Assembly (NCBI GenBank): GCA_963813715.1
Contig: CAWFAK010000016.1
Location: 448,001-512,000, forward strand
Length of the DNA: 64,000 nt
Direction: 5' to 3'
From: an uncultured Planctomycetaceae bacterium
GTDB taxonomy: Bacteria; Planctomycetota; Planctomycetia; Planctomycetales; Planctomycetaceae
Below, piece after piece: positions 43,106-59,805 of this stretch. Position 1 is the stretch's first letter. Each line of letters begins with the position of its first letter. A program made the position numbers and the translations under genes. The notes beneath the pieces were generated by a model, which saw only the letters and a program-made list of their open reading frames with translations, had not been told where the DNA came from and did not search any database.

Positions 43106-44767
43106 ATGCAGCGCAGCGTTCCCCCTCGCTTAACTTTCCCACGTGTTTTACTGGCCGTGGCGGCCGCTTGGGCCGTGTGCCTGACCGCGCCGCATGTCGT
43201 GCAGTCAGCCGAGCCCGGCGTCGAATTGCTCTTTGACGGCGAATCGCTCAAGGGCTGGACGGGCAATCCGGAGTTCTGGAAGGTTGAGGATGGCACGATC
43301 GTCGGCGAAACGACGGTCGAACACCCGACGAAGGGCAACACCTTCCTGCTCAAGGAAGGTTTTAACACCAAGGACTTCGACCTGACGCTCGAGTACAAGA
43401 TTGGCTCCGGCGTGAAGCCGCCGCCGGCCTTCCAGCCCAACTCGGGAATCCAATACCGCAGCTTCGAGGCGCCCGGCAAGAAGTGGGTCGTTTACGGCTA
43501 TCAGGCCGACATCGACGCCGGCAATACCTACTCGGGCTCGATCTACGGCGAAGGCTTCCGCGGCATGCTCGCCGCTCGCGGGCAAAAGACGATCATCGGC
43601 GACGATCACAAGGCGAAGGTCGTCGGCACTCTCGGTGAGGGCAGCGACATTCAGTCGCACATCAAGAAGGACGACTGGAACACCTACCAGATCACGGTCC
43701 GCGGCTTCCACTTCGAGCAGCGGATCAACGGCGTGTTGACGGCCGTCTGCGACGACGAAGACAAGACGATGCGCCGATCCGAAGGCATCTTGGCGCTGCA
43801 GCTGCACGCCGGTGTGCCGATGAAGGTGCAGTTCCGCAACATCAAGTACCGCGAGCTCAAGCCGGAAGGCTCGACCTCGAACGAGCCGAATGGCAAGCAG
43901 AAAAAGATCGTCTTCATCGCGGGTCATCGGAGCCACGGCTATGCCGAGCACGAACATCGCGCCGGCTCGCTGCTCCTGGCAAAGGCCCTCAACGAGAACG
44001 TCCCCCAGGTGCACGCCGTGGTCGTCGAGAACGGCTGGCCCAAGGACGCGAGCATCTTGAATGATGCCGACTGCATCGTAGTCTATGCCGACGGCGGCGA
44101 AGGTCACCCGCTCGTCAAGCACCTGGCCGAATTCGACAAACTGATGAAGCGCGGCGTCGGCCTCGTCTGCATTCACTACGCGGTCGAGGTTCCCAACGGC
44201 GGCGCGGGAGAAGCGATGGAAGAATGGACCGGCGGTTATTTCTCACCGAACTGGTCCGTGAACCCGCACTGGACGGCCACTTATAAGTCACTGCCGCAGC
44301 ATCCGGTCACGCGGGGCGTGCATCCGTTCAAGATCAACGACGAGTGGTACTACCACATGCGGTTTCTGCCGCAAGGGGATGTGACGCCCATCCTCACCGA
44401 CCTTCCCCCGAAGAGCAGCGTCGGCAAGGACGGCACGCACAGCGGCAACCCGGCCGTCCGCGCGGCGATCGCCAAAGGCGAGCCGCAAACGATGGCCTGG
44501 GCCCGCGAGCGACCGGATGGGGGACGGGGCTTCGGCCTCAGCGGCGGCCACGTGCACTGGAACTGGGGTAACGACAACTTCCGCAAGCTCGTGCTGAACG
44601 CCATCGTCTGGGCCGCGCACGTCGACGTGCCGCAGGATGGCGTGCCGTCCCGCCCGCTCACACTGAAAGAACTCGAGGCCAACCAGGACAAGCCGCAGCC
44701 GGCCGACTTCAACCCGGCCCGTATCCAGGCGCTATTGGACCAGTGGCGTGCGGAGAGCGGCTCGTGA
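43106..44767 (+). CDS. secreted DUF1080 (3-keto-disaccharide hydrolase-like) plus ThuA-like domain protein
   Basis: LFDGESLKGW, NSGIQYRS, GYQADI, DDWNTY, LALQLHAG, FRNIKY; then GYAEHEHRAG, DEWYYHMRF, GGHVHWNW. Confidence 0.85.
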   Translation: MQRSVPPRLTFPRVLLAVAAAWAVCLTAPHVVQSAEPGVELLFDGESLKGWTGNPEFWKVEDGTIVGETTVEHPTKGNTFLLKEGFNTKDFDLTLEYKIGSGVKPPPAFQPNSGIQYRSFEAPGKKWVVYGYQADIDAGNTYSGSIYGEGFRGMLAARGQKTIIGDDHKAKVVGTLGEGSDIQSHIKKDDWNTYQITVRGFHFEQRINGVLTAVCDDEDKTMRRSEGILALQLHAGVPMKVQFRNIKYRELKPEGSTSNEPNGKQKKIVFIAGHRSHGYAEHEHRAGSLLLAKALNENVPQVHAVVVENGWPKDASILNDADCIVVYADGGEGHPLVKHLAEFDKLMKRGVGLVCIHYAVEVPNGGAGEAMEEWTGGYFSPNWSVNPHWTATYKSLPQHPVTRGVHPFKINDEWYYHMRFLPQGDVTPILTDLPPKSSVGKDGTHSGNPAVRAAIAKGEPQTMAWARERPDGGRGFGLSGGHVHWNWGNDNFRKLVLNAIVWAAHVDVPQDGVPSRPLTLKELEANQDKPQPADFNPARIQALLDQWRAESGS

Positions 44768-47700
44768 AGGGGACGGAAGAATCGGCCTGGCGAGCCTGGG
44801 GCGTCAGCCCCAGGGTGCTTTACATTTCCGAACTCGCTTGGGCACCCGATGCACCCGCCAGCTTACGCTGGCGGCTCGCCTGCGCGTTGTGCGCGATGGT
44901 GCTCGTGGCACTCAGCCAAGTGCCGCTCTTTGCCCAGGACGAGCACCCACCATCGCAGGCCCTAGCCGGGCTCGACGTCGGCCCCGGGCTGGAGGCCACG
45001 CTCTTCGCCTCTGAGCCGATGATGCTCAGCCCCACCAATATTGACGTCGATGCCCGCGGCCGCGTGTGGGTCTGCGAGGTCGTCAACTATCGCCATCGCA
45101 ACGGCGAGCGCCCCGAGGGCGATCGCATCCTGATCCTGGAAGACACCGACGGCGACGGCAAAGCCGACAAGTCGACCGTCTTCTACCAGGGACGCGATAT
45201 CGACTCGGCCATGGGCATCTGCGTGCTCGGCAACCGGGTCATCGTCTCCGTTTCGCCCAACATCTTCGTCTTCACCGACACCGACGGCGACGGCAAGGCC
45301 GACAAGAAGGAAGTCCTCTTCACGAAAACCGGCATTCCGCAGCACGACCACACGGCCCACAAATTCGTCTTCGGCCCCGACGGACGGCTCTACTGGAACT
45401 TCGGCAACGAAGGGCACTCGGTCCACGATCGCAACGGCAACGTTGTGAAGGATATTTTCGGTCGCCCGGTCGTCGACAAAGGGCAGCCTTTTCACGGCGG
45501 CATGGCCTTTCGTTGCGAGCTGGACGGCAGCCGCTTCGAGGTCCTCGCCGACAACTTCCGCAACAACTACGAACTGGCCGTCGATTCCTTCGGCGGCTTG
45601 TGGCAGTCGGACAACGACGACGACGGCAACCGGGCCGTCCGCATCAACTATCTGCTCGAATACGGCAACTACGGCTATCGCGACCAGATGACCGGCGCCG
45701 GCTGGCAAACGCCGCGGACCAATCTCGAAGCCACCATCCCCGAGCAGCACTGGCACCAGAACGATCCGGGCGTCGTCCCCAACTTGCTCGATCACCGGCG
45801 CCGGCTCGCCGACGGGCATCGTCGCGTACGAGGGGACGCTGCTGCCGACGCGGTTCCAGGGACAGGTGATTCACGCCGACGCCGGGCCGAGTGTCGTGCG
45901 TTCCTACGGGATTGTTCCGGATGGAGCCGGCTACCGCTCGACGGCGACCGTCAATTTATTATCGGGAGCCCGCGATCACTGGTTCCGTCCGTCGGATGTC
46001 TGCGTCGCGCCGGACGGCTCGTTGATGGTGGCCGACTGGTACGATCCGGGCGTCGGCGGCCACCACATGGGCGACATCAAGCGAGGCCGCATCTATCGCC
46101 TCGCGCCGCCGAAGACGCCCTATCGCGTCCCCTCGCACGACTTCAATTCAGTTTCCGGTGCAATCGAAGCGCTCGGCAGTCCCAACCTGGCGACGCGTTA
46201 TGTGGCTTGGACCGCTCTGCGCTCACGCGGCGCGCAGGCGGAGGCAGAGCTTGCTCGAGCGTTCGAGAAATCTGGCAAAGCCACTCAGCGGGCGCGGGCC
46301 CTGTGGCTGCTCGCGATGCTGGACGAACGCGGCAGTGACTACATCGCACGCGCCTCGAAAGATTCCGATCCCAACATCCGGGTAACCGCCCTGCGGGCTG
46401 CGCGGCGTGTCGGTCACGGAAGTCTAGGAACGATCCGAACGTTGGTACACGACGCCTCGCCCGTCGTCCGTCGCGAATGTGCGATTGCCCTGCGCAACGT
46501 GGGGAACGTGGAACGCGCACAACTTTGGACGGAACTCGCACTGGCACATGATGGTCGCGACCGCTGGTATCTCGAAGCTCTCGGAATTGGCGCCGACGGC
46601 GATTGGGACGCGTGTTTGGCACGTTGGCAAGACGCTTCGTTAGCGCGAAGCTGGGCTGCCGCGGCTGCCGCCACGAAGGAACCCGGCAAACACGTGAGTG
46701 ACACCGCAGCCGAGGTGGCCCGACAGAAGGCAGTTCGAGACATTGTGTGGCGCTCGCGCGGCCATCGAACGCCGGAGATTTTGGAAGAGCTTCTATTGTC
46801 AAAAACGACGCCTCACGAGGAACTGCCTCGCTTGTTGCGGGCGTTCGATTTTCAGCCTGCCCCGGACAGACAGCAGTCGCTCTTGCGACTCGCATTTGGA
46901 GACGCTCGTCCCGACGAGGTTGGTGCGTCGCAGATGATCCGCACGGAAGCGATCTCGCGATTGGATCGCAAAGACGTGCTGGACGACCCCAGGCATGCCG
47001 AGGCGCTCACCGCTCTGGTCAGCTCGCTCAGCGGGACGCCGCGACTCGTGGACTTAATGGAGCGATTTTGGCTCCCGCGTTATGCGCCGGAAGTGTTGGC
47101 CGTCGCTCAAGCAAACTCTCAAGACAGCCTCGGCGTTCGGGCGATGCGCCTGCTGCTGGATGCGGCAGACAAGTCCGATCTCGAGGATGCCCTGAAGAGT
47201 CGCGATCCAAAAGTCGTCCACGACACAATTGCCGCACTGGCCAGCTCCGCCGATCCACGCTCCGGCAAATTTTTGTGGCCCATCGTCGACGACACGAAGC
47301 GTCCACTCGAAGTCCGCCGGCAAGCGGTTGGAGCGGCCGCCCAGAGTCGTCGTGGCGCTGTCGAAGCTCTGGAACGAGCCGAGCACGGCCGACTCGACGC
47401 CTCGCTCCGCGAAGCCGCCTCTGCCGCGGCTTACGCCTCCTCATCTGAGGCAATTCGCGCCCGAGCCGCGAAGGTCTTCCCGTTGCCGCCGTCGGCCGAC
47501 GCGCGGCCCTTGCCGCCCGTCCGCCAACTAATCCGGCGTCGAGGCGACGTGCGCCAGGGCGAGATCGTGTTTGCGACCATCGGCACCTGTGCGAAGTGCC
47601 ACGTCGTGAACGGCCAGGGGCGGGACGTCGGCCCCAATCTCTCCGAAATCGGTGCTAAGCTCAGCCGGCCGGCGATCTACGAATCGATCCTGTTCCCGAG

Positions 47701-48013
47701 CGCGGCGATCAGCCATAATTTCGCGGCTTACACGGTCGTGCTCACCAACGGCAACGTCGTCACGGGACTGCTGGTCAGCCGCACGGCCGACTCCATCGCC
47801 GTCAAAGGCAACGACGCGATCACTCGCACCTATAAGATGTCGGAAGTCGACGAGGTCAAGGAACAAAGCGTCTCGCTGATGCCGGCCGATCTCCAGAAGG
47901 CAATGACGGCCGACGACCTGGTCAACGTGGTCGAATACCTGACGACGCTCAAGCCGCAGACGCAAAAAGCGATTTCCGCCCGCTTAAACGGGCAACCGAA
48001 GAAACACGAATGA
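44764..48013 (+). CDS. PVC-type membrane-bound dehydrogenase-like protein with HEAT-like repeats and a C-terminal c-type heme CxxCH; frameshift near 45790; alternative start at 44896
   Basis: LFASEPM..PTNIDVDARGRVWV, RILILEDTDGDGKAD, FRNNYE, WFRPSDV, GRIYRL, CAKCH...VGPNLS...SLMP. Confidence 0.88.
44789..44880. repeat. inverted pair of 29-nt REP-like hairpins (44789-44817 on +, 44852-44880 on -), same family as 35990-36111
   Basis: GGCGAGC-CTGGGGC-GTCA-GCCCCAG-GGTG and, on the minus strand, GGCGAGC-CGCCAGC-GTAA-GCTGGCG-GGTG. Confidence 0.8.
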
Positions 48014-48060: not shown

Positions 48061-49010
48061 ATGCGAACGATTCTAGTCACCGGCGGTGCCGGCTTTGTCG
48101 GCAGCCACCTCTGCGACCGGTTGATCGAGCGGGGCGACAACGTGCTCTGCCTCGACAACTTCTTCACGGGCAGCCGCAACAACGTCGAGCAGCTGATTTC
48201 TCGGCCGCACTTCGAGCTGATCCGCCACGACATCGTTCGCCCCGTGTTCCTGGAAGTCGACCAGGTTTATAACCTCGCCTGCCCCGCCTCTCCCGAGGCG
48301 TATCAGTCCAATCCGATCAAGACGATCAAGACGTCGACGGTCGGCATGGTGAACGTGCTGGGGCTGGCCAAACGGTGCTCGGCCCGCATCCTGCACGCTT
48401 CGACTTCGGAAGTTTACGGCGATCCCCAGGTCCACCCGCAGACGGAGGACTACTGGGGCCACGTCAATCCGATTGGTCCGCGGAGTTGTTACGACGAAGG
48501 CAAGCGCGTCGCCGAGTCGCTGTGCGTCAACTATCACCTGGCGCATCGAGTCCAGGTGCGGATCGTTCGCATCTTTAATACGTACGGCCCGAGGATGGCC
48601 CGCGACGACGGCCGCGTGATCTCCAACTTCATCGTGCAGGCGCTCCGCGGCGAAGCCGCTGACGATTTACGGCGACGGCCGCCAGACCCGCTCCTTCTGC
48701 TATCGTCGAAGACCTGGTGGAGGGGCTGATCCGCATGATGGATCAAAATGAAACGACGGGCCCGGTCAACCTGGGCAACCCGGTCGAAACATCGATGCTC
48801 GAACTGGCCCAGACCGTGCTGCGGCTGACCGGATCGAAGTCGGAGCTGAAATTCATGCCGCTGCCGCAGGACGATCCGAAGCAGCGCTGCCCCGACATCA
48901 GCCGGGCCAAGAAGGTGCTGGGCTGGGCGCCGCGCGTCTCCCTCGAGAGCGGGCTGACGAAAACGATCGCGTATTACCGGGCCCTGCTCGAGAAAGATCC
49001 CCAGCCATGA
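48061..49010 (+). CDS. UDP-glucuronic acid decarboxylase (extended SDR); frameshifts near 48655-48710
   Basis: [55 protein letters not shown]. Confidence 0.9.
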
Positions 49011-49921
49011 ACGTGCCGGCCGAGGGCTCCGCGCCTCTTCGAAAGGGCATCATTCTGGCGGGCGGAGCGGGCACGCGCCTGCACCCGGCCACGCGCGTCG
49101 TCAGCAAGCAGCTCTTGCCCGTTTACGACAAGCCGATGATCTTTTATCCGCTGTCCACGCTGATGCTGGCGGGGATGCGGCAAATTCTGATCATCAGCAC
49201 GCCCGTCGACTTGCCCATGTTCGAGCGGCTGTTGGGCGACGGCTCGCAGTGGGGACTGGAGCTGTCGTACGCCGAGCAGCCGAATCCCGGGGGGCTGGCG
49301 CAAGCTTTTCTGATTGGCGAGAAGTTTCTCGCGGGCGACCTGTCCTGCCTGGTGCTCGGCGACAACATCTTTTACGGCGAGAACTTGAGCCAGAACCTCC
49401 GCCGCGCGGCCGAGCGCACTTCGGGCGCGACGGTTTTCGCCTACCACGTCGCCGATCCCGAGCGTTACGGCGTGGTCGTGCTCGACGCTGACGGCCGCCC
49501 CGTCGACATCGAGGAGAAGCCCAAGCAGCCCCGCTCCAGCTACGCGGTGACCGGTCTCTACTTCTATGACCGGGACGTCTGCGAGATCGCCAAATCGCTC
49601 AAGCCGTCGCCGCGGGGCGAGTTGGAGATCACCGATCTCAACCGCCGCTATCTCGAAGCGGGCCGGCTCACGGTGGAGATCTTTGGCCGCGGCACGGCGT
49701 GGCTCGACACGGGCACGCACGAGTCGCTCTTGGAAGCGGGCACTTTCGTGCACGTGCTCGAGGCGCGACAGGGGCTCAAGGTTTCCTGTCTGGAAGAGAT
49801 TGCGTATCGCATGGGTTACATCGGCAAGGATGAGGTCCGCCGTCTTGCCGAGCCGATGCGCAATAACAGCTACGGGCGCTATCTCCTGAGGCTGATCGAG
49901 GCCAACGACCCGCACATTTGA
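49007..49921 (+). CDS. rfbA: glucose-1-phosphate thymidylyltransferase
   Basis: [60 protein letters not shown]. Confidence 0.96.
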
Positions 49922-50459: not shown

Positions 50460-51848
50460 ATGAAATGGATGAGACTCTTAAGCGCCGTGGTCGCCACCTT
50501 CGGCCTGGCCACTGCCGCACAGGCCGACATGTTCGACCTGTTCCACAGCTGGAACCATGATGGCTGTGCGAAGGGCTGTGGGTGCACGAGCGCCTGTCAG
50601 CCCTGCTGCTGCAAGCCGGTAATCGTCAAGCCCTGTTGCCCGACGGTGCACTGCTACCAACGGCAATGTGCTTGTCAGAAACCGGCCTGCTGCAGCCGTT
50701 GCTGCGAGGCTCCCAAGTGCTGTGCTCCGGCTCCGGCCGCTTGCTGTGCCCCGGCTCCTTGTGCCGCGGCTCCGCACTGCTGCCCGGCTCCGGCCGCCGC
50801 TCCGGCTTGCTGTGCTCCGTCTCCGTGCGCTGCGGCTCCCCGCTGCTGCCCGGGTCCGGCCGCTGCTCCGGCTTGCTGCGCTCCGGCTGCGTGTGCCGCT
50901 GCTCCTCACTGCTGCCCCGCTCCGGCGACCTGCGGTTGCCCGGCTCCGTGTGCCGCTCCTCGGTGCTGTGAAGCGCCGAAGTGCTGCCCGGCTCCGGCCA
51001 CCTGCGGCTGCCCGGCTCCGTGTGCCGCTCCTCGGTGCTGCGAAGCGCCGAAGTGCTGCCCGGCTCCGGCGAGCTGTGGTTGCCCCGCTCCGTCGTCTCA
51101 CTGCTGCCCGGCTCCGGCCACGTGCTGTGCTCCGGCGACTTGTGCGCCGAAGTACTGTGCTCCGGCTCCGGCCAGCTGCTGCGTGCCGGCCGCTCCGGCC
51201 TGCAACACGTGCAATAGCTGCAACTCCTGCAACAGCTACCCGCACGGCCTGTTCGACATCTTCCATCACAGCAAGGGCGTTTGCTACCAGACGTCGTGCA
51301 CCACGACCAAGGTTTGCTGCGCCGACCCCTGCGAAGTTGCTGACCTGATCTACAAGTCGCAGACGGCCTGCTACGGCAAGCAGCGCGCCCACGCCATCCA
51401 CAAGCTGGGCTCGTATGACTGCCAGTGCAATCCGGAAATCTTGTGCGCGATGGTCTACGGTTTGAATGACGCCGACGAGCACGTTCGTCGTGAGTCGGCT
51501 GAGACGATTGGTCACTCGCTGAAGAAGAACCCCTGCTGCTGCAGCCGCGAAGTCGTGGCGGCCCTGACCTGTGCGTTGGCGGACTGCGATCGTAGCGTCC
51601 GCAAGCACGCGGAGAAGGCCCTGAAGCAGTGCGGTTACGACGTGGTCGACGGCAACTGCTGCAAACCGGGCTGCACGGGTCCGGTCGGTGGTTGTGCTTC
51701 GACGTCGCAGCCGATGGCTCCGATGCCGACTCCGGCGCCCCAGATGGCTCCGGCCCCGGCTCCTGCCCCGGCGACGGCGCCGGCCCCGGCTCCTCCGGAA
51801 GACTCGAAGGCCTACTTCCCTTCGCGCCTTCGCGATCAGCAGGGCTAG
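50460..51848 (+). CDS. secreted Cys/Pro/Ala-repeat protein with a C-terminal HEAT-like domain
   Basis: AAGGAG ribosome-binding site; signal peptide ending TAAQA; tandem Cys-rich repeats; LNDADEHVRRESAETIG and ALADCDRSVRKHAEKAL. Confidence 0.8.
   Translation: MKWMRLLSAVVATFGLATAAQADMFDLFHSWNHDGCAKGCGCTSACQPCCCKPVIVKPCCPTVHCYQRQCACQKPACCSRCCEAPKCCAPAPAACCAPAPCAAAPHCCPAPAAAPACCAPSPCAAAPRCCPGPAAAPACCAPAACAAAPHCCPAPATCGCPAPCAAPRCCEAPKCCPAPATCGCPAPCAAPRCCEAPKCCPAPASCGCPAPSSHCCPAPATCCAPATCAPKYCAPAPASCCVPAAPACNTCNSCNSCNSYPHGLFDIFHHSKGVCYQTSCTTTKVCCADPCEVADLIYKSQTACYGKQRAHAIHKLGSYDCQCNPEILCAMVYGLNDADEHVRRESAETIGHSLKKNPCCCSREVVAALTCALADCDRSVRKHAEKALKQCGYDVVDGNCCKPGCTGPVGGCASTSQPMAPMPTPAPQMAPAPAPAPATAPAPAPPEDSKAYFPSRLRDQQG
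50738..51085 (+). repeat. coding tandem repeats: about three 66-bp units (ACCAPAPCAAAPHCCPAPAAAP) then two-plus 72-bp units (APATCGCPAPCAAPRCCEAPKCCP)
   Basis: 72-bp period seen at 50919, 50991 and 51063. Confidence 0.85.
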
Positions 51849-52060: not shown

Positions 52061-53860
<1,800 letters not shown>

Positions 53861-53884
53861 CTCTTGAAAAGAAACACAGCCGCT

Positions 53885-54561
53885 CTCCCATCCGCCGAAG
53901 CGGACGGGAGAGGGGGAAAGATTGGAGGTAGATTGGGGTTTCGGGTCCCCGGGCCTGCGCTGCGCTCCGACCCAGCTGCAGCTGTCGCGCTCCGTTGGGG
54001 CTGGAGTAGAGCGGGACGGGACACGAACGCATTGGGACTCCGGAATGGCCGCGGCGCGCGAGTGCCACCCGAGCCGACTGGTCAAGAATTGTCTGGTGGG
54101 GATCTTGCTCCCGCCGGGACGCAAAAGGATCCCCGGCGGTGATGGGGATCCTTTTTCACTAAGCGGAGAAAAGATCCCCGGCAGCCGACGCCGAGCCGAT
54201 TGCGGACAGTCCAAGTCCGGTCCGGACACTTTTCGAGCGGGACCCGCGGGACGGGACACGTTGTTTCACCGAGAAAAGCCCGGAGAAAGTGGCCGTCACC
54301 CATCCGAGGCGGACGGGCGAGGGCGAAAAGTGGGACGGGACTCGAACGGTAACGGGTCTCGTTTCGTAGGGTGTCGACAAGGCCGCCTTGCGGCCGCAGG
54401 CACACCATTTCTTCCCGGCCGCTCTAGAGAAGGAGTCCACTGGGGATGGTGGGCCGGTGCCCCGCCTGGCGGGACTGGTCCCACCCCAGGGATTGGGACC
54501 GGTGGGACGGGACTCGTTGTTTCACCGAGAAATGCCCGAAGAAATCGACCCTCACCCCGAC
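53885..54561. repeat. repeat-rich spacer between the IS copies, including an uninterrupted repeat unit at 54248-54344
   Basis: GGGACGGGACWCG at 54013, 54248, 54332 and 54504; GGGGATC(C)TT / AAGATCCCC inverted repeats at about 54098-54180. Confidence 0.75.
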
Positions 54562-54577
54562 CTTGTATGTTGAAAAA

Positions 54578-54796
54578 AGATCAATCTGCGCATTTGATGG
54601 TGACAGCTGTGGGAAGGCTTGCGAAGCGTAGCGAAGCAAGGTTTCCCACAGCGGCCGGCGGTAGATCGTCCGCCCTCAGGTCCAAGAAGACCGTGGGAGA
54701 GCTGGATCGCCGCCGGTCTCATGAGATCAGCCCGAACAGCCGTCAGAGCCGTCGGGGCGCCAGTCGCCGCTCGAGCTCGCATTCGCAAGGACGGGA
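54578..54796 (+). ncRNA. putative bridge RNA of IS110 copy 2
   Basis: same as copy 1 apart from one substitution seen (GTCGTGG versus GTCGGGG) outside the guide segments. Confidence 0.75.
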
Positions 54797-54803
54797 CATC
54801 GTC

Positions 54804-55756
<953 letters not shown>

Positions 55757-55855
55757 CTCTTGAAAAGAAACACAGCCGCTCTCCCATCCGAAGCGGACGG
55801 GCGAGGGAGAAAGACTGGACGGGACGCGATCGACCCGGTAAGCGATCAGCGGCGC

Positions 55856-58934: not shown

Positions 58935-59805
58935 ATGCGGTTAGCCACCGTGCTCACGCCCCAGGGACCCCGAGCGGTCGGTGTTCATCAGAACGCCGGA
59001 AGCGACCGATTCGTCGATCTCCGCGCGGCCGATCCCGAGCTGCCCGCCACCGTCGCGGGCATCCTGGCGCTCGCCGGCGGACTCGACCGCGTCCGCGCGG
59101 CACTCACCAAGGCGACCGCATCCAAGCAGTTCGTCACGGGCGAGATCCTCGCGCCGCTCCCCAGCCCCGGCAAAGTTTTTTGCATCGGCCTCAACTACCG
59201 CGACCACGCCCTGGAAACCAAGGCCCAGATTCCCGGCGAGCCGATCGTCTTCAGCAAGTTCTCCAGCGCGATCGTCGGGCCGGGGGTGACCATCCTCCTG
59301 CCGCGGGCCTCGAACAAGGTCGATTACGAGGCCGAGCTGGTGGTCGTCATCGGCCGCCGCGGCAAGCTGATCTCCGCGGCCGACGCTCCCGGGTATATTG
59401 CCGGCTACATGGTGGGGAACGACGTCTCAGCCCGCGACTGGCAGACCGAGAAGCCGGGAAAGCAGTGGCTCCTGGGCAAGAACGCCCGACACCTTCGGCC
59501 CGACCGGCCCCTGGCTGGTGACGGCCGACGAAGTCCCCGACCCCTGCAACCTGGGAATCCGTCTGCGGCTGAACGGCCAGACGATGCAGGATTCGACCAC
59601 TAAAGAGCTGATTTTCAGCCCAGCGAAGCTGATCGAGCACATCACCAAAGTCGTCACGATCGAGCCCGGCGACATCATTTTCACCGGCACGCCACCTGGC
59701 GTCGGCGTGGCCCGCACTCCGCCCGTCTTCCTGAAGGACGGCGACCAGGTTGAGGTCGAAATCGATGGCCTGGGGACGCTCAAAAACCCCGTCCGGGCCG
59801 AATGA
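58935..59805 (+). CDS. fumarylacetoacetate hydrolase family protein; frameshift near 59480
   Basis: KVFCIGLNYRDH, VDYEAEL, NDVSARDWQ, WLLGK, PGDIIFTGTPPGVG. Confidence 0.92.

Follow-up and report, generated by a model that had tools for sequence, protein, structure and literature searches.

The right end of an IS621-like insertion sequence in an uncultured Planctomycetaceae bacterium carries the -35 half of a predicted promoter whose -10 half lies at the left end of the same element. Very probably, excision joins these ends into both a donor site and a sigma-70 promoter, which insertion would split again. The window, that is, the whole stretch of 64,000 nucleotides that we analysed, holds two direct copies of this 1.2-kb element, at 52666-53884 and 54562-55780 from core to core, and positions 53864-53884 are the right end of copy 1. 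The evidence presented here covers the boundaries of the element, its junction sequence, the guides, the targets, the conservation of the -35 box and the host sigma factor. Since the junction-promoter mechanism is already published for this very subgroup (IS621), the value of a further case is modest.

The genome contains nine full copies of the element, 94-99% alike, of which two are in the window. Copy 2 (54562..55780, + strand; -10 at 54566-54571, ATG at 54804, -35 at 55760-55765) shows 14 alignment differences from copy 1, and its reading frame is likewise broken in the assembly. Between the two lies a repeat-rich spacer of 677 bases with clustered palindromic repeats (53885..54561, unstranded). 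The pair is unlikely to be an assembly duplication because its members differ at 10 substitutions and in their flanks. The genome has a second tandem pair (L002, G000:C5:1206701-1209468), whose downstream copy is the most divergent (94%), with changes in the target-binding loop. The element has a long left end (about 240 bases), a short right end (22 bases), a dinucleotide core at both sides and a site-specific target, and it lacks terminal inverted repeats; none of the 23 inverted-repeat pairs in the window is a long inverted repeat at the element ends. Judged by these sequence features, it is an IS621-like member of the IS110 group and not an IS1111 element. Its nearest named relatives are labelled uncultured Planctomycetaceae.

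The recombinase gene of copy 1 (52908..53860, + strand) encodes an IS110 DEDD protein that matches PF01548 and PF02371 above their cut-offs, combining a DEDD RuvC-like domain with a Tnp domain that holds a catalytic serine. In an intact 317-aa copy elsewhere in the genome, the catalytic residues D12, E56, D98, D101 and S237 are present, and they correspond to D11/E60/D102/D105/S241 of IS621 (PMC11208158). The only solved structures matched were those of ISCro4 and IS621 (E about 2e-42), with the ISCro4 recombinase (PDB 9t56) as the best match (E 1.7e-42, residues 7-307); ISCro4 is a distant homologue, compared here at the protein level. The frame of copy 1 is broken near 53667 in the assembly. 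This break is probably a sequencing error, because the contigs of all four public runs examined carry one more base there and do not show it. The full 317-aa frame is open in three of the nine genomic copies and broken in the assembly in the other six. The three intact copies, together with the 94-99% likeness among copies, suggest recent activity.

Several features were observed around the elements. Upstream, 48061-49921 holds what appear, by their motifs, to be nucleotide-sugar genes, one UDP-glucuronate decarboxylase-like and one RmlA-like, the former split by an apparent frameshift. The reading frame also seems to shift within 44743-48013 and 58935-59805, which points to an assembly prone to errors. 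A 462-aa Cys/Pro/Ala-rich repeat protein (50460-51848) begins like a signal peptide and matches HEAT_2 weakly, below the cut-off. Just upstream of the repeat cluster that houses the elements, an Acido-Lenti-1 RNA match at 52207-52254 (48.7 bits against an Rfam gathering score of 37) overlaps a terminator-like hairpin (52207-52226). On the other side, about 75 bases separate the right end of copy 2 from the end of a putative BBP7 beta-barrel porin gene (PF07585; 55856-57289, - strand).

The core of copy 1 is the dinucleotide CT, at 52666..52667 on the left and 53883..53884 on the right (+ strand), and it is found at both sides of all nine genomic copies. To the right of every copy stands CT-CTCCC, and to the left a C-rich flank, with a CACCCC-type repeat half in eight of the nine. 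Because the right flank contains two successive CTs, the core could be the first or the second of them, giving a spacer of 17 or 19. The unoccupied repeats of the genome settle the matter: 21 fit the first CT as core and none fits the second, which rules out the spacer of 19. They thereby fix the circle junction as TTGAAA-N17-TATGTT, the sequence that the preliminary description had read from the ends. The join of 52665 to 53883 is present in contigs of three of the four public runs, which may represent other repeat copies. The target consists of REP-like hairpin repeats, whose empty examples close with GGG(A/C)GAGGG, and insertion is at a CT within hairpin repeats of the form CCCTCACCCC-nn-CC-CT-CTCCC. 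At copy 1, the left half of the target hairpin is at 52648..52665 and the right half, running from CTCCC to GGGAGAGGG, at 53885..53916 (both + strand). The supplements of Durrant et al. (PMC11208160) already include targets of the CCCTCACCCC..CCCTCTCCC class. A longer dispersed repeat of the GGGACGGGACACGTTGTTTCACCGAG type lies 5' of the target hairpins (52606-52665, 54245-54301 and 54500-54557); dozens of copies occur across the genome and in soil runs.

The left end holds a predicted bridge RNA (52682..52907, + strand, with inferred 5' and 3' limits). On the same strand it comprises a 5' hairpin (52710-52756), a left-target guide (about 52772-52780), a right-target guide GGGAGAG complementary to the core plus the right target (52799-52805), a left-donor guide ACAGCCG (52840-52846) and a right-donor guide CAAG complementary to the core plus TG (52890-52893). 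The left end folds better than all of 200 shuffled sequences (z = -3.63). It matched no Rfam family; two sX15 matches, far below the gathering score, were taken as chance. Comparison with relatives showed that the guides covary with target and donor. The right-target guide matches its target at 7/7 positions in 24 of 32 distinct rows, at 6/7 in five and at 4/7 in three, the full matches span 13 different targets, and the offset is the same in 26 of the 32 rows. Of 83 full-length loci, 65 contain the left-donor guide sequence followed by CT in their right end (60 of 98 were used for junctions), and in three types the right-donor guide changes from CAAG to CGAG together with a change of TG to CG. 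The left-target guide is weaker here: it reaches 8/9 in several relatives and only 5-6/9 for the targets of this element (6-7 with wobble).

The -35 box TTGAAA occupies 53864..53869 (+ strand) in the right end of copy 1, three bases after the transposase stop codon and 19 bases before the core. The -10 box TATGTT, at 52670..52675 (+ strand), is made of the last three bases of the right donor (TAT) and the left arm (GTT, 52673-52675) of a short subterminal inverted repeat, whose complementary right arm AAC is at 53873..53875 (+ strand). The left-donor 7-mer ACAGCCG, read by the left-donor guide that repeats it, fills 53876..53882 (+ strand). Joining the ends places 13 bases, the CT and a TG between the boxes, a spacer of 17, and only once joined do the two boxes stand at 17 +/- 1. 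This junction, reconstructed from integrated ends, matches the sigma-70 consensus at 9/12 positions, including A2 and T6 of the -10. Copy 2 has identical ends (-35 at 55760, -10 at 54566), as had been described, and both ends are in fact identical in all nine genomic copies. Sites of 9/12 with A2 and T6 occur at 1,023 of 14,975,574 genome positions (0.068 per kb), and a promoter scan of the linear region gave none, with 0.3 in shuffles. The -10 is only 4/6, has no properly placed TG extension and is wholly recombination-site DNA, so that its conservation is not independent evidence of a promoter. Transcription is predicted to start at 52682, because the IS621 bridge RNA begins 7 bases after its -10; this falls within the 52681-83 expected beforehand, and the promoter would point, as also proposed, into the predicted bridge RNA and then the recombinase gene.

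Several observations indicate, at the level of sequence, that the host uses sigma-70-type promoters. A 9/12 site is found in 13 of 87 host tRNA upstream regions, compared with 0.5% of 3,000 random 120-mers, and the host encodes RpoD-like proteins in which the customary motifs of regions 2 and 4.2 are present. No host protein passes the RpoD family cut-off (354 bits), the best scoring 348. In the integrated state, the two boxes lack partners: at spacer 17, the -35 position upstream of the -10 scores 0-2/6 and the -10 position downstream of the right-end -35 scores 0-1/6 in all nine copies. We also considered whether the right-end -35 could serve a promoter that reads out into the flank, and rejected this, the -10 there reaching at most 3/6 in any of the nine.

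We examined 98 recombinase loci and rebuilt the junction in 60, which gave 28 distinct junction types, corresponding to about 21 lineages by our own grouping (17 of them with the -35 at -19), all of them kin. Of the 38 loci dropped, 15 had only a partial gene, 18 (13 of them forming one Vampirovibrio element group) showed no match to the guide in their right end, and in five the left core could not be placed. Right ends were placed by the donor guide and CT only, and thus the -35 was not selected for in the junction set; the left-end search required the TA of the -10. The motif TTGA is present in 28 of 28 types, against a chance background of 0.0032 per position, and its distance ahead of the core is 19 bases in 20 types, 20 bases in three, 15 in one and 12 in four. 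The neighbouring spacer columns -13 to -11 carry just 0.03-0.72 bits. Each of the eight types with a shifted -35 has a plausible -10 at 17-18 bases, for instance TTGACA-N17-CAAAAT in Cupriavidus, and the last T of TATGTT is kept in one of four shifted types versus 19 of 20 in the -19 group. The best -10 moves with the -35 and the spacer stays at 17-18, a pattern more in keeping with a promoter than with a recombinase site. The inverted-repeat arms covary as well, being AAC/GTT here and AAG/CTT, ATC/GAT, ACC/GGT or GAC/GTC in relatives. In the 28 types taken together, pairing holds at 77 of 84 positions, against a mean of 61.9 in shuffles, none of which reaches 77 in 10,000 trials, and with only the 10 unique pairs counted the figure is 23 compared with 15.7 (reached by 29 of 10,000 shuffles). 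The conservation extends down to about 42-45% protein identity.

Some relatives have other end layouts. In L041/L076, L079, L085, L087 and L092, an additional structured segment separates the stop codon from the right-end donor, which makes their right ends much longer. The 13 Vampirovibrio copies (L053 and L056-L067, about 39% identity) do not fit the donor-guide rule, and the layout of their ends may differ.

The junction of E. coli IS621 has a -35 TTGCAG at -19, a 17-base spacer and a -10 TATTAT (Durrant et al. 2024, PMC11208160 supplement), and its donor is ACAGTAT-CT-TGTAT there, as the preliminary description had given it. The likeness drawn from it holds: our element shares with IS621 the CT core, a 14-bp donor ending in TGTAT, the -35 at -19, the spacer of 17, a -10 that begins with the TAT of the donor, a long left end with a bridge RNA, the CAAG right-donor guide, the order of the guides, a REP-type target and the DEDD plus serine residues. 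It differs at 3 of 14 donor bases (ACAGCCG-CT-TGTAT here), in its boxes (TTGAAA/TATGTT) and in its inverted repeat, which is ATA/TAT in IS621 and of the 3-base subterminal kind described by Durrant et al. (PMC11208160). It also has a different repeat target, a right end of only 22 bases after the stop codon, the longer left end and a planctomycete host. Orthologue donors with the same ACAGCCG-CT-TGTAT 14-mer and a TTGACC -35 are listed in the supplements (PMC11208160), in the searched parts of which the exact junction of our element had no match. The general claim made earlier, that IS110 circles create junction promoters, is published for IS621 and for ISPpu10 of Pseudomonas putida, in which a strong sigma-70 junction promoter takes its -35 from the right end and its -10 from the left (PMC12288879). 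Circles of ISPpu9, also from P. putida, have no junction promoter and use a native promoter instead (PMC12288879), so such promoters are not universal among IS110 elements. By description, our element resembles ISPpu10 and ISPpu9 as an IS110 element in extragenic palindromes, and those two form circles. A literature search found no paper joining IS110, Planctomycet and bridge RNA, and among the papers listed by a second search, on IS110 insertion sequences and REP in planctomycetes, none evidently concerned this element.

The junction of the element itself had no match in the window or in the genome. A search for it among reads, as suggested in the preliminary description, was carried out on the contigs of four public runs and returned neither the junction nor a back-joint of the element in any of them; contigs drop rare forms, and this failure is therefore not evidence of absence. 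One back-joint from 53925 to 52605 in run X4 links the flanking repeats and not the element ends. The exact motif was likewise absent from a metagenome scan, from 401 genomes of the phylum and from viral contigs. A degenerate motif gave three matches. One of these, L102, is a 1,386-bp contig whose 127-base terminal repeat makes it a closed unit of 1,259 bp, with an open 329-aa recombinase 49% identical to that of our element and a junction that reads TTGCAA-N17-TATGTT and shares donor and inverted repeat with our element. L102 is either a circle or a head-to-tail array; in both cases the predicted joint is present in the DNA of a relative. The other two were discarded as junctions: L104 has no recombinase nearby and was taken as chance, and L103 is an integrated relative whose left flank resembles a donor and contains no -35. 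In L103 (522-575 and 1807-1842), which is 42% identical, this flank includes the relative's own donor together with its right end in inverted orientation, as though the element had landed in, or next to, a copy of its own end.

A real but minor junction promoter, with most bridge RNA and recombinase coming from read-through or from promoters of integrated copies, is unlikely in our judgement, although it has some material on its side. In two of the nine copies, including copy 1, the flank supplies a -35 TTGGC (4/6) at spacer 16; TTGGCC at 52648, contributed by the left half of the target hairpin, makes TTGGCC-N16-TATGTT (8/12) a possible weak hybrid promoter of integrated copy 1. An internal site, TTGAAA-N17-TTTGAT at 52674, scores 9/12, and integrated IS621 is transcribed at a low level (PMC13626964). 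Six RNA runs hold 65-80% of the element's words, as contigs that are silent on start, strand and level, and the contigs of the two RNA runs examined contain no circle junction. Against this, the flank -35 is missing from seven of the nine copies, the internal site has no A at position 2 of its -10 and its TTGAAA is absent in several relatives, the RNA contigs may be DNA carry-over, and the conserved right-end -35 would be left unexplained.

It is very unlikely that the motifs are a recombinase-binding or recombination sequence that merely resembles a promoter. The -10 can be fully accounted for by donor pairing and the short inverted repeat, and TTGAAAA is present at both ends of the element; TTGA, by contrast, lies outside both the 14-bp donor and the inverted repeat, and in eight of the 28 types it shifts to -20, -15 or -12 while the -10 candidate keeps its 17-18 bases, where a recombinase site should hold its distance to the core. 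Moreover, a 22-bp IS621 donor without the -35 recombines when the RNA is supplied in trans (PMC11208160). That a dead element should match the consensus by chance, in an AT-rich stretch, seems barely credible: the six broken frames and the AT-rich ends would suit it, and they are set against a background of 6.8e-5 per position, the reach of the conservation among relatives, the three intact and closely similar copies that suggest recent activity, and a break in copy 1 that the four public runs examined do not share.

We therefore favour the promoter assembled by excision, which would operate as follows. The recombinase and bridge RNA would excise the element between its two CT cores, and the resulting circle would join right end to left end, rebuilding the 14-bp donor and, by the same joining, setting TTGAAA 17 bases ahead of TATGTT. 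Housekeeping sigma-70 polymerase would then start near 52682 and transcribe the bridge RNA and the recombinase, which would insert the circle at the CT of hairpin repeats and split the promoter again. The circularisation of this element, the firing of the promoter, its start site and the size of any boost are predictions in this scheme, and the boosted expression from the circle is expected by analogy with IS621 and ISPpu10.

A wider reading, which combines landing-site tuning, recombination between tandem copies and a capped -10, is speculative and rather improbable as a whole. The target repeat can lend a substitute -35, so that some integrated copies would be expressing source copies. The two tandem pairs could recombine across their spacer, leaving an active junction promoter in the chromosome. 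The need for its last three bases to pair with the right-end inverted repeat would hold the -10 below consensus, a cap that some lineages would escape by sliding the promoter register.

These results extend the range of predicted junction promoters and bridge RNAs of the IS621 type to Planctomycetota. They also add an orthologue for screening, a compact bridge recombinase that seems to have been active recently and whose right-target guide naturally has the full 7 bases. Finally, this family, with a promoter that overlaps the recombination site and a promoter register that slides, offers a natural test of the two constraints.
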